Shown here one piece after another: positions 42,001-45,000 of a stretch of 64,000 nt of DNA. Source of the stretch: an uncultured Haloferula sp. (GTDB taxonomy: Bacteria; Verrucomicrobiota; Verrucomicrobiia; Verrucomicrobiales; Akkermansiaceae). Every line of letters begins with the position of its first letter. Position 1 is the first letter of the stretch. Made by a program: the position numbers. The DNA lies in assembly GCA_965652295.1 (NCBI GenBank), contig CBFGTS010000014.1:45794-109793 (forward strand). The letters are read 5' to 3'.

Positions 42001-45000
42001 TTCCGCTTTTATTCGATCAGTGGCTGAGGACCTCGGCGAGCGCCCAGCGCTTCGACTTGGACACGGGGCGTGTCTCGACGATGCGGACCTTGTCGCCGAT
42101 CTTGGCGGCTCCTTCCTCGTCGTGGACGTAGTACTTCTTGGAGCGCTTGACGATTTTCTTGAACTGTGGGTGCGGAACGCGGGCGACGTGTTCGACGACG
42201 ATGGTCTTGTCCATCTTGTCGGACACGACCACGCCGACGCGGGTCTTGCGGAGGTGCGGACGGGAGTCCTGTTGGGTCTCGCTCATGGCTGGGAAATCGT
42301 GAGATTAAGGAAGTTCAGCCCTCCTTGCGGGCGTTGAGGTAGGTCATGGCCCGGGCGATGTCCCGGCGGACAGTGCGGATGCGCGCGGTGTTCTCAAGCT
42401 GGCCGGTCGTCTGCTGCATTTTCAGCGCGAAGGCCTCTTCCTTGAGGTCACGGATTTTCGCGTCCAGCTCCTTGGCGGTGAGTTCGGCGAAAGGATGTTT
42501 CTTGGTCGTAGCCATGATCGGTCAGGAGTGGGGATTGCGGACAACGAAGCGGGTCGGCACGCCGAGCTTGTAGGAGGCAAGGCGCATGGCCTCGCGGGCC
42601 TGGGATTCCGGCACGCCGGCGACCTCGAAAAGCATGTTGCCGGGGCGGACCACGGCGACCCAGGCTTCCACGGCACCCTTACCTTTACCCATCCGGGTTT
42701 CCGGCGGGCGGGAGGTGATCGACTTGTGCGGGAAGATGCGGATCCAGACTTTCCCCTTACGTTTGAGGAAACGGTTGATCGCGATACGGCAGGCTTCGAT
42801 CTGGCGGTTGGTCATCCAGCCGCGGCCGAGGCATTGAAGGCCGAAATCACCGAAGGCGACGGTGGTGCCGCGCTGCGCGTTGCCGGCGCGGCTGCCACGG
42901 TGGCTCTTACGGAACTTCGTGCGTTTGGGCATCAAAGGCATGACGGGGTCCTCCTAAAGTTGGTTTTGAGTTAAAGAATCGGGCTCAGCCTTGTGGGGCC
43001 GGAGCGTTGTTGCGGGGGCGGCGGGGTCCGCGCTCACGGCGATCACCACCAGGCGAAGGCGCGCGTTCGGCTTCTTCCTTCTTGTTGACCCAGCACTTGA
43101 CGCCGATGACGCCGTAAACGGTGCGGGCTTCGGCAAAGCCGTAGTCGAGAGGCACGCGCAGCGTCTGGAGCGGCACCTTGCCCTCGCGATACCATTCGGC
43201 ACGGGCGATGTCGGCACCGCCGAGGCGGCCGGCGCAGCGGATACGGATACCATCGGCACCGAAGTCCATGGTGGTCTGCACGGCGCGCTTCATGGCACGG
43301 CGGAAGGAAATCCGGCGTTCGAGCTGCACGGCCACCTGCTCGGCGACGAGCTGGGCATCAAGTTCCGGCTTGCGGATCTCGACGATGTCGATCTTGACGT
43401 TGTTGTTGTTGCAGATCTTGGCGAGATCGTTGGTCATGCGCTCGATCTCCGATCCCTTGCGGCCGATGATGAGGCCGGGGCGGGAGGTGTGGAGGGTGAC
43501 GCGGACACTGGCCCAAGCGCGCTCGATGACGACCTTGGAAAGAGCGGCGAACTGAAGGCGTTCCTTCAGATAGCGGCGGATCCTGAGGTCCTCGTGGAGC
43601 TTCTCGGTGTAATCCTTGCCGGAGGCATACCATTTCGAGCGCCAGTCCTTGCTGACGGCGAGACGGAATCCGATGGGGTTGACTTTTTGGCCCATAGTAA
43701 AAAGTGACGTTGCGGGGTTACGGGATCAGGCTTCGGCCTTGGCGGACACGTGGACCCGCTTCTTCTTCGAGGTTTCCTCGGGAGCTTCCGCGAGGGTGAT
43801 ATAGATGTGGCTGGTGCGCTTGAGGATGGCACCGGCGGAACCGCGAGCGCGGGGTTGGAAACGCTTGAGCACGGGCCCCGCACCGATCACCGCTTCCTTG
43901 ACGATCAGGTCGTCGGCGTTGAGCGCGAAGTTGTTCTCCGCGTCGGCAACGGCGGTCTTGAGGGTCTTGTTGATCAGGAACGCCGCCTTCTTGGGAGTGA
44001 AGGCGAGGATATCGAGGGCGGCGGAAACAGGAAGACCCTGGATTTCGCGCGCCACGTCACGGGCCTTCTTCGGCGAGAGGCGGACGAATTTGCTGGTGCT
44101 CTTGACTTCCATCGGAGTTGAAGGTGAAGGATTGACTGGGCCTGGGCGGTTATTCGGTTTCGAGAAGGGCAAGATCGCCGACGCGCACGGGACCCTGGCC
44201 GGGATCGAGCGTTTCGACGAAGGCACCGGCCACTGACGATCGGACGTCGGCAATGATGGCGGTGCCGTAGGGCTGGTCGCCCCGGTAGAGGCGGTATGTG
44301 GAGCCGATTCGTGTCTGCTGCCGCTCGCCGATATTGAAGACGAGAAGGCCGCTTTCGGAATCGATGCTCATGACGTTGGCCCGGGTTGCGGTGCCGGACG
44401 CCTGAGCGGCGGGGGCGGGCTTGTGGCGCAGTCCGAGGACGACGTCAAGCTCTCTCATGGCGGATTCGACACGAAGCCGGGCATCCGGATCGGATGCCAC
44501 CGCCTGGCGGAGGTATTCGGTGACGGCACCGGCGAGCTGGCTGGCCGTGCTCTGGATCTTCGCCTCGCGCTCTTCGAGCAGAACGCGGTCGGAAACGGCG
44601 TCGACCATGCGCTGGCCGTCGCCTTCCAACAGGCTGCCGCCGAGGGCGGCCAGCCGGGTGCGGATCTCCGCCAGCTGCTCGGACGCTTCCTTCTCCGCGC
44701 GGTTGGCGGCGGCAAGGGCGTCCTTGAGCGATTGGTTCTCCGTCTGGAGCGTGGCGATCACGCCCTGAAGCTGTTCGGCATCCGCCCCCTGCCCCACGGC
44801 GACGCCCGACTGCATGCCGAGAACGGCAGCAGCAATGACGATGGCACGTGGAGAATTCATGGAGACGGAGTCGCGAGCTTCAGGCCGGATTACTTCTTAC
44901 CAATGCCACCGTGGGCACGGAAGATGCGGGTCGGGGCGAATTCGCCGAGCTTGTGGCCGACCATGTTCTCGGTGACGTAAACGGGGACGAAGGTCTTGCC

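Follow-up and report, generated by a model that had tools for sequence, protein, structure and literature searches.

Gene order in the S10 operon is among the most stable in bacteria. Several non-ribosomal genes, among them secY, adk, map, infA, and rpoA, are expressed along with the ribosomal protein genes of the cluster, but these passengers belong to the spc and alpha operons, whereas the gene described here, designated X, lies in the core of S10. Among described proteins, FlgT of Vibrio (3w1e, 8z5n) is periplasmic, as the X product would be, and its six-stranded barrel superposes with that of X, but X has neither FlgT_N nor FlgT_M nor a flagellar gene context and carries a coiled coil ahead of its barrel. 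TsaP, which is associated with the secretin of type IV pili (3jc8 chain Ta, 6ve2 chain O), has a barrel of the same type (Z 7.7); it combines LysM with tandem barrels, whereas X has one barrel, no LysM, and a coiled coil. The rod-shape protein MreC displays the same succession of N-terminal anchor, dimeric coiled coil (dimerization being predicted for X), and beta-barrel, with fold matches at Z 8.3 to 9.1, but has two barrels and PF04085, which X does not match. MreC is not known to be encoded within a ribosomal operon.

Position, expression, and conservation of X

The DNA comes from an uncultured Haloferula sp. (GCA_965652295.1, contig CBFGTS010000014.1), and positions are those of the window, the whole stretch of 64,000 nt that was analyzed. 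A 236-aa gene between rpsS and rplV had been reported in the genome-wide survey's note, and this is confirmed: X is an open reading frame at 44150-44860 on the minus strand that starts with ATG and stops with TAA, with S19 and L22 identified by Pfam on either side (Table 1). The three genes share one strand, and X is separated from rpsS by 29 nt and from rplV by 37 nt. Across 65 loci, the median distance between X and rplV is 18 nt (range, 0 to 117).

Table 1. Features of the rpsS-X-rplV segment, in the direction of transcription (window positions).
Feature	Position	Strand	Basis or remark
rpsS (ribosomal protein S19)	44890..45159	-	Upstream neighbor of X; Pfam PF00203, 1.6e-38
Spacer, rpsS stop to X start, 29 nt	44861..44889	-	Sequence read
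X residues 1-23, N-terminal signal-like segment	44792..44860	-	R5, hydrophobic core AIVIAAAVLGM, possible cleavage after A-V-G
X residues 24-142, coiled coil of three helices (24-73, 81-119, 125-142)	44435..44791	-	AF2 secondary structure
X residues 143-158, linker of low confidence	44387..44434	-	Mean pLDDT of 10-residue blocks drops to 58-69 around 141-160
X residues 159-236, six-stranded FlgT_C-type beta-barrel	44153..44386	-	pLDDT 96-97; most conserved part of X
Spacer, X stop to rplV start, 37 nt	44113..44149	-	Sequence read
rplV (ribosomal protein L22)	43726..44112	-	Downstream neighbor of X; Pfam PF00237, 7.3e-35

A consensus scan of the gene strand, including the spacer between rpsS and X, detected no promoter-like or terminator-like sites. 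At an Akkermansia locus, both junctions are bridged by RNA-library contigs of 9,290, 16,166, 9,531, and 2,368 nt from four studies, although such contigs may include DNA and cannot prove a single transcript. Regarding the survey's view that synthesis of X is tied to that of ribosomal proteins, the location within the S10 operon is upheld, whereas co-expression is only plausible.

X is under purifying selection, with dN/dS values of 0.09 to 0.19 in five Akkermansia pairs, across both halves of the protein; the value of 0.53 for the window protein and a congener, obtained at 57% identity, was treated as unreliable, and the closer Akkermansia pairs were preferred. In a TraDIS study of Verrucomicrobium spinosum, the gene VSP_RS22560, situated between rplV (RS22555) and rpsS (RS22565), was called essential (PMC12283558, supplement file 7), and we equate it with X by its position and gene length (786 nt) rather than by sequence. 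Its insertion index was 0.00127, as opposed to 0.0108 and 0.0154 for its neighbors, and there was one insertion within its 785 bp in a library with a genome-wide density of one insertion per 12 bp (PMC12283558). Polarity on essential genes downstream, which is not discussed in that paper, may be the cause of this call. One supplement of PMC4960237, on the localization of the Akkermansia proteome, contains no row matching X.

Architecture of the product and affinity of its barrel

A hydrophobic stretch of 12 residues begins at residue 6 of X (Kyte-Doolittle 2.20), and a hydrophobic N-terminal segment occurs in 63 of 64 family members, the exception being one from Kiritimatiellia, in which it is absent with the start codon chosen here. 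In operon copies of X, acidic residues come after sites resembling Ala-X-Ala, a pattern typical of exported proteins; the cleavage site in the window protein was placed by eye rather than with a signal-peptide predictor. The AF2 model, built from a 36-row alignment, has a pLDDT of 82.8 overall and of 96 to 97 in the barrel, within which, in an alignment of the family, G178 is invariant and G182, G186, R207, G228, and D229 are conserved at 90% or more. The build proposed in the survey's note, in which a signal or anchor helix is followed by a coiled coil and then by a barrel of the FlgT/MreC type, is borne out, with the model, the VIA-align matches, and the N-terminal segments in agreement. The coiled coil is absent in some lineages, and members of one clade consist of a signal peptide and barrel only (118 to 125 aa), so some members can do without this part.

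X is predicted to form a parallel coiled-coil homodimer. The modeled homodimer scored 0.45, against 0.00 for the best of three controls, and this score was reached by 20 of 30 proteins whose solved structures are pairs of one chain, versus 1 of 23 solved as single chains. Dimer runs share at least 60% of their contacts, with a partner pLDDT of 66, and the predicted interface is parallel and in register along residues 28-142, with 35:35, 42:42, and 49:49 in contact.

Searched against Pfam and NCBIfam, X matched no family at the cut-off (best, Phage_scaffold at 21.8 bits, with a cut-off of 35), and it gave no FlgT_C (PF16538) row at an E value of ≤1, so that the Pfam gathering cut-off of 27 bits was not reached. 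Among 36 family members, 8 matched FlgT_C below the cut-off (best E, 0.02). The chain named in the survey as a VIA-align match, 8z5n_5 (FlgT residues 287-377), ranked first, with Z 12.3 and an rmsd of 1.9 Å over 76 residues; the second row (Z 9.9) was 2.4 Z lower, and Foldseek returned 8z5n_0 (E, 1.7e-4) and 3w1e (E, 3.7e-4). Six-stranded barrels are a common fold, and ATPase N-domains reach Z 9 to 10 against X. A profile of the barrel only retrieved 8,425 representative proteins at an E value of ≤0.001; 28 multi-domain proteins among the 150 matches listed were scanned, of which 22 match FlgT_C at an E value of <0.01 and 10 pass the 27-bit cut-off. Partner domains in such proteins are extracytoplasmic (BlaR1 M56, Secretin_N, VWA, and LysM).

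Through these intermediate sequences and its fold, the X barrel belongs to the FlgT_C superfamily as a divergent member. The survey's statement that X is of no known family is not supported: X itself falls below every Pfam and NCBIfam cut-off, but some of the proteins retrieved with the barrel profile score above that of FlgT_C. A protein atlas returned for X only unnamed Verrucomicrobiota clusters of its own; the nearest named cluster has FlgT_C in 40% of its members (score, 0.81), which serves as a lead only. The 361 homologues previously counted in the protein collection were recovered in the same number, and the matches listed are all "hypothetical" or misnamed.

Several identities were considered and rejected. 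X is not FlgT, a component of the flagellar H-ring, since Pfam scans detected neither FlgT_N nor FlgT_M in X or in the 36 family members and a coiled coil stands in their place. Among solved structures, TsaP is matched best by the sequence profile (E, 5.3e-4 and 0.079), but this similarity is marginal, and X gave no LysM row and has one barrel only. Nor is X MreC: there is no PF04085 row, and the genome encodes its own MreC (C2:282546-282989, 4.2e-35), so X does not stand in for it. Some sources name homologues of X as the Braun lipoprotein Lpp, but the window protein has no cysteine anywhere and hence no lipobox. CT421.2, known as the PVC signature protein, is not the same protein as X. We found no description of X in the accessible portions of the literature on the Verrucomicrobia S10 operon, rpsS-rplV, or B2UMT5.

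Distribution and linkage to rplV

X was found in each of the 101 Verrucomicrobiales genomes searched (30 of 30 genera, 8 families), extending the survey's finding of a homologue in every genome that it searched in this order. The accompanying claim of a single copy needs qualification: genomes of the order have one match each, except for one genome with a second, weak match, and the genome under study also encodes distant paralogues (C4:134755-136541 and C19:8501-9250). N-terminal helices of the distant paralogues look uncleaved and are followed by Lys/Arg. The surroundings of paralogues, at seven further loci and for the two copies in this genome, were uninformative (e.g., pgi, an ABC transporter, and prolyl-tRNA synthetase). 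The order S19-X-L22, which the survey had seen at other loci, holds in all 31 primary matches whose loci were examined.

The same junction contains X in other orders of Verrucomicrobiia and in other classes of Verrucomicrobiota, in relatives named by the sources as Kiritimatiellia and Victivallis. From the phylum sample, a further 70 loci downstream of S19 were chosen, and a barrel open reading frame was present in all 15 with a gap of at least 375 nt (E, 1.6e-28 to 1.8e-7). X is missing from 31 sampled loci at which the distance from rpsS to rplV is -1 to 172 nt, so rplV can do without X in cis. One clade has an S10 operon that is interrupted after rpsS: in 10 genomes, unrelated genes follow rpsS, and rplV is located elsewhere; X lies immediately 5' of rplV in 8 of these 10, and the conserved link is therefore to rplV. 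A promoter scan 5' of X at two of the split-operon loci yielded no usable site.

X was not found adjoining rplV in 19 of 47 families examined and is therefore dispensable or replaceable in many relatives. In a tree of L22, S3, and L16 (98 rows), X occurs on both sides of the deepest split, with at least 8 presence changes, 5 of which are forced by well-supported branches, and the barrel is kept across three classes. Two genomes served as outgroups: the gap between rpsS and rplV is 14 nt in Escherichia coli, and the two genes have consecutive locus tags in Planctopirus limnophila (Plim_0481 and Plim_0482; PMC12283558 supplement). With the junction occupied in other orders and classes, and with repeated losses, X is not the order-defining protein that the survey's note took it to be.

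Proposed origin and role of X

The reading that we favor, and judge somewhat likelier to be right than wrong, is that X encodes a housekeeping periplasmic dimeric scaffold, made together with rplV, that originated as an old insertion at the rpsS-rplV junction and was later lost repeatedly. The product would be sent by Sec to the periplasm and there form a parallel coiled-coil dimer bearing two C-terminal FlgT_C/MreC-type barrels, of a kind that in FlgT, TsaP, and MreC binds other periplasmic machines, and would act as an envelope scaffold or spacer. X would share a transcript with rplV-rpsC-rplP, and its translation would probably proceed in tandem with that of rplV, so that the amount of X made would follow ribosomal-protein synthesis. 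Its entry at the junction would predate the divergence of Verrucomicrobiae, Kiritimatiellia, and Lentisphaeria, to be followed by several losses, with X remaining at rplV when the operon broke. Of these elements, the position, conservation, and fold of X, the purifying selection on it, and its linkage to rplV are demonstrated, whereas its export, dimerization, co-translation, and envelope role are inferred. We consider it possible, but doubtful, that X, as such a periplasmic dimeric scaffold, is essential and translationally coupled to uL22, with envelope building metered by ribosome output, and that its insertion in front of rplV is a single rare change uniting these three classes within the PVC group.

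It is unlikely that the reading frame is kept for a promoter, translational coupling, or an RNA element needed by rplV-rpsC-rplP, with any protein activity being secondary. X does lead the distal block in 8 of 10 split-operon genomes, the median distance from its stop to the start of rplV is 18 nt, and the TraDIS intolerance could reflect polarity alone; but conservation is at the protein level (G178, G182, G186, R207, G228, and D229), dN/dS is low (0.09 to 0.19) in both protein halves, and the signal-like N terminus is retained in 63 of 64 members. We assign a lower probability still to the survey's order-specific, MreC-like envelope or shape scaffold defining Verrucomicrobiales, which the occurrence of X in all 101 genomes of the order and the MreC chains among the fold matches (Z 8.3 to 9.1) would fit. 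Its range is already contradicted by X at the same junction beyond the order and the class, the genome has a true MreC, and FlgT_C is the nearer barrel. That X acts as a growth-rate-coupled shape scaffold is still an inference.

The repeated losses, evident in the presence changes on the tree, and the want of a functional context shared with its neighbors are what one would see if X were a near-neutral old insertion that persists because removal from an essential operon is risky. Such persistence is nevertheless very improbable in the face of purifying selection, a barrel kept in three classes, survival of X through the operon break, and the single TraDIS insertion in 785 bp in V. spinosum. 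Least probable of the readings weighed here is a role on the cytoplasmic face, in which X works with the ribosome or the Sec translocon, for example, anchored in the membrane and partnering uL22 at the exit tunnel. Such a role would account for the linkage of X to rplV specifically and not to rpsS, and the uncleaved-looking helices and Lys/Arg of the distant paralogues would place their bulk in the cytoplasm; but the operon copies carry Ala-X-Ala-like sites and then acidic residues, and the FlgT_C superfamily co-occurs with periplasmic domains.

Given the stability of S10 gene order, a non-ribosomal protein, exported in the reading that we favor and held immediately 5' of rplV from before the divergence of three classes, is unexpected, and its placement is still more so because X stayed at rplV through the operon break. 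As a rare genomic change, the insertion would provide a simple marker of the clade formed by Verrucomicrobiae, Kiritimatiellia, and Lentisphaeria. As a scaffold produced from this position, X would offer a natural test case of operon placement coupling the dosage of an envelope protein to ribosome synthesis. For the phylum, to which Akkermansia muciniphila belongs and whose cell envelope is poorly understood, X would also represent an envelope component that is unstudied and possibly essential.

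X at the rpsS-rplV junction within and beyond the order

The S10-spc ribosomal cluster of the window runs on the minus strand from fusA down to rplF, and X, the gene between rpsS (S19) and rplV (L22), is separated from these neighbors by 29 and 37 nt, respectively. The X protein matches no Pfam or NCBIfam model at its cut-off, the rows seen being coiled-coil noise, and a scan of the gene strand from 42900 to 46100 detected neither a sigma-70-like promoter nor a terminator-like hairpin. In the same cluster, only 27 nt separate rplE and rpsH, so the spc operon lacks rpsN (S14) at its customary position; the sole S14 match of this genome is on another contig.

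Coordinates of features in the window (no prefix) and its genome (G000; C, contig), with fetched loci of compared genomes (L)
Feature	Location	Strand	Remarks
fusA	48057-50198	-	
rpsS	44890-45159	-	Pfam S19, 1.6e-38
X	44150-44860	-	236 codons, start ATG, stop TAA
rplV	43726-44112	-	Pfam L22, 7.3e-35
rplE	40647-41225	-	
rplE-rpsH spacer	40620-40646		
rpsH	40221-40619	-	
rplF	39654-40193	-	
S14 match	G000:C9:99476-99634		2.2e-23
Tandem barrel ORFs	C4:134755-136541		
Single barrel ORF	C19:8501-9250		
X at same junction, other orders of the class	L033-L036		four loci
X at same junction, 112-aa form	L039		
X at same junction, other classes	L042, L044-L046, L048, L049, L052		seven loci
Split-operon S19 loci	L069-L076, L084-L087, L095-L096, L102-L103, L105, L107-L108, L114-L116, L119, L121		
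Split-operon L22 loci	L123-L132		

Within the Verrucomicrobiales, X is present in 101 of 101 genomes (30 of 30 genera in 8 families, the window's genome included). The genome-wide survey's note had placed X between rpsS and rplV, an arrangement that is confirmed and proves more extensive than it stated: the order L2-S19-X-L22-S3 occurs in all 31 loci examined that hold the primary match, 12 of them from the order-wide search and 19 from the remaining seven families. The same note's count of one match per genome holds for 100 of the 101, with G050 carrying a second, weak match (L028) located elsewhere than at this junction. Its view that X defines the order is not supported, as the junction is similarly occupied in other orders and other classes. 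The single-protein search with X matched 46 of 201 genomes sampled across the Verrucomicrobiota at E ≤ 0.01, and many of the weaker matches occupy the same junction.

A second sample was independent of X detection: S19 could be placed in 198 of the 201 phylum genomes, and 3.2 kb at and downstream of it was fetched from 70 genomes hand-chosen among the matches listed (one to several per family, skipping those already examined). The S19-L22 gap measured 375 to 778 nt in 15 of the 70 loci, every one of which contains an ORF matching a barrel HMM built from our own X alignment (E = 1.6e-28 to 1.8e-7). Another 31, with gaps between -1 and 172 nt, lack an ORF matching this HMM, and in the remaining 24, unrelated genes follow S19 (one, L072, ends at the contig end and is uninformative). 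Of the 53 family codes, 47 were examined: X adjoins rplV in 28 of these, with the mixed family f37 tallied as having X, and was not found beside it in the other 19.

Named sources of identical or near-identical proteins include Haloferula and Luteolibacter, and the Akkermansia muciniphila homologue is ACD04141.1 (UniProt B2UMT5). Other named sources are "Verrucomicrobium sp. GAS474," which kinship codes place in a different order from the window, a Kiritimatiellia bacterium (the L045 protein), and an uncultured Victivallis sp., whose protein is 89% identical to X of split-operon locus L126. All named homologues are annotated as "hypothetical" or with unrelated automatic names.

Linkage to rplV and probable history of X

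L22 was located in 10 of the 24 genomes with unrelated genes after S19, either on another contig or 0.66 to 1.27 Mb away on the same one, the distance separating the operon halves in complete genomes. Immediately before L22, 8 of these 10 carry an X homologue (full-length HMM, E = 3.5e-20 to 8.2e-6), indicating that the conserved linkage is between X and rplV. At the other two loci (L123 and L127), no X precedes L22, and a YqeY-like gene and an integrase-like gene are found there instead. From the X stop to the rplV start, the median distance is 18 nt (range, 0 to 117; 65 loci), and at one more locus, L131, it is ~420 nt by coordinates. In a clade including a Victivallis-like genome, the S10 operon breaks exactly after rpsS, with rplV-rpsC-rplP elsewhere.

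A FastTree tree of concatenated L22, S3, and L16 from 98 loci (omitting L024, which has no L16) was built without an outgroup and rooted at its midpoint. The deepest branch (support, 98) has genomes with X on either side. On this tree the presence of X changes at least 8 times, and well-supported branches force 5 of these changes; with shuffled labels the mean is 26. Such counts do not separate gain from loss. Short X forms constitute one group (support, 90), and 8 of the 10 split-operon rows belong to one clade (support, 99). Because homologues are found at this junction in both halves of the tree, a single ancient insertion with repeated later losses appears to fit better than many insertions. 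Two checks were made outside the phylum: the rpsS-rplV gap is 14 nt in E. coli, and rpsS and rplV of Planctopirus limnophila have consecutive locus tags in a published table (PMC12283558).

Protein architecture and relatives of the barrel

In the 36-row alignment of X (A1), the N terminus is variable, the helical region has an "ALG" turn that is conserved (G74), and the C-terminal block is well conserved: G178 is invariant and G182, G186, R207, G228, and D229 are conserved at 90% or more. The AlphaFold2 model based on A1 (pLDDT 82.8, pTM 0.43) contains helices at residues 24-73, 81-119, and 125-142 and six strands within 160-233 (pLDDT 96-97). A hydrophobic 12-residue window lies near the N terminus in 63 of 64 family members, and in operon copies the hydrophobic segment precedes Ala-X-Ala-like sites and acidic residues, as read by eye. 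The chosen start of L045 yields no hydrophobic N-terminal segment. In L045 and L099 (Kiritimatiellia-like, f37), 123 to 147 nt separate S19 from the chosen start, and the L099 N terminus looks non-hydrophobic (by eye, unscored); either the true start of these copies is non-canonical or the proteins are not exported. One clade of the class (f9, f11, f13, and f21; L039, L053-L059, and L065) has, at the same junction, a form of 112 to 125 aa that lacks the coiled coil and keeps the signal segment and barrel alone, making the barrel the constant part of X.

The homodimer prediction for residues 24-236 passed with a score of 0.45 (best of 3 controls, 0.00). Among proteins of solved structure, 20 of 30 one-chain pairs and 1 of 23 single chains reached that mark. 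The runs share at least 60% of contacts, with a partner pLDDT of 66. In the model, the chains meet in register along a parallel coiled coil, the barrels lying outside the interface, and X is predicted, by model confidence and not by measurement, to be a homodimer of this type.

Foldseek returned two matches below 0.001, both to FlgT (8z5n_0 at 1.7e-4 and 3w1e at 3.7e-4), followed by the N-terminal barrels of F1/V1 ATPases. Among 48,161 chains, the top VIA-align match was the FlgT C-domain (Z 12.3, rmsd 1.9 A, 76 residues), ahead of ATPase barrels (9.2-9.9), MreC (8.3-9.1), and TsaP (7.7). By profile, the best solved relative is TsaP, at 9.4e-4 with A1 and 5.3e-4 with A3, a barrel-only profile of 47 sequences; a second TsaP-like chain (0.079) and MreC (0.14) match more weakly. 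The Pfam family touched by the largest number of members is FlgT_C (PF16538; 8 of 36, every one below the cut-off). Searched against 1.84 billion representative proteins, A3 matches 8,425 (E ≤ 0.001), of which 2,223 reach E ≤ 1e-10, multi-repeat proteins among the matches. When 28 multi-domain proteins picked among the matches listed were scanned with Pfam, 22 matched FlgT_C at E < 0.01, and 10 passed its 27-bit cut-off; partner domains include BlaR1-type M56 peptidase, Secretin_N, VIT/VWA, and LysM. The fold and profile matches, together with FlgT_C in proteins found by A3, make the X barrel a divergent FlgT_C superfamily member, and this superfamily is employed by extracytoplasmic proteins. 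One protein-library entry, P0248 (4,728 aa), combines 39 stretches matching the barrel profile with bacterial cadherin-like domains, and the barrel thus also serves as a repeat in giant surface proteins.

The window's genome encodes a normal MreC and three more ORFs detected by the barrel HMM, a tandem pair and a single ORF (L134, L135), all missed by the single-protein X search. The tandem pair adjoins an ABC transporter gene. Similar proteins encoded outside the operon in other genomes have strongly hydrophobic, uncleaved-looking N termini, and the inspected neighbors of paralogues offered no functional clue. Matches outside the operon lie beside a phosphoglucose isomerase gene in G263 (L037), from a family without X in the operon, and, as a second match, in G109 (L038), from the short-form clade; the barrel model recognizes the L037 ORF (1.2e-13) and none of the ORFs kept from L038.

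Selection, expression, and probable role

Nei-Gojobori dN/dS ratios are 0.09 to 0.19 in the five Akkermansia pairs with finite dS and are alike in the helical part and the barrel. In a TraDIS study of Verrucomicrobium spinosum, the tag between rplV (VSP_RS22555) and rpsS (VSP_RS22565), VSP_RS22560, is classed as "essential," with an insertion index of 0.00127, equal to one insertion in 785 bp; the flanking rplV/rpsS tags have indices of 0.0108 and 0.0154, insertions average one per 12 bp genome-wide, and the "essential" cut-off is near 0.006 (PMC12283558). RS22560 is identified as X from its position and its length of 786 nt (261 codons, like related loci) and not from its sequence, and the passages of the study consulted do not address polarity on downstream essential genes.

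The Akkermansia locus (L009:1000-2600) occurs in 18 public runs, 14 recorded as RNA, from 6 studies together. Contigs were inspected in four RNA runs from four studies: three yield unbroken single contigs of 9.3 to 16.2 kb spanning L16 to L2, and the fourth a 2,368-nt contig from S3 into L2, at word depths of 329 to 4,344. Such contigs are compatible with transcription through both X junctions but are not proof of one transcript, and the libraries may contain DNA.

The best-supported reading is that X is an old, Sec-exported, dimeric coiled-coil protein with an FlgT_C-type barrel, co-expressed with rplV, under purifying selection, and possibly essential. Export by Sec would be followed by dimerization through the coiled coil, and co-expression with rplV would tie the level of X to ribosomal-protein synthesis. 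By analogy with FlgT, TsaP, and MreC, X would most likely act as a periplasmic scaffold or spacer, its amount following that synthesis.
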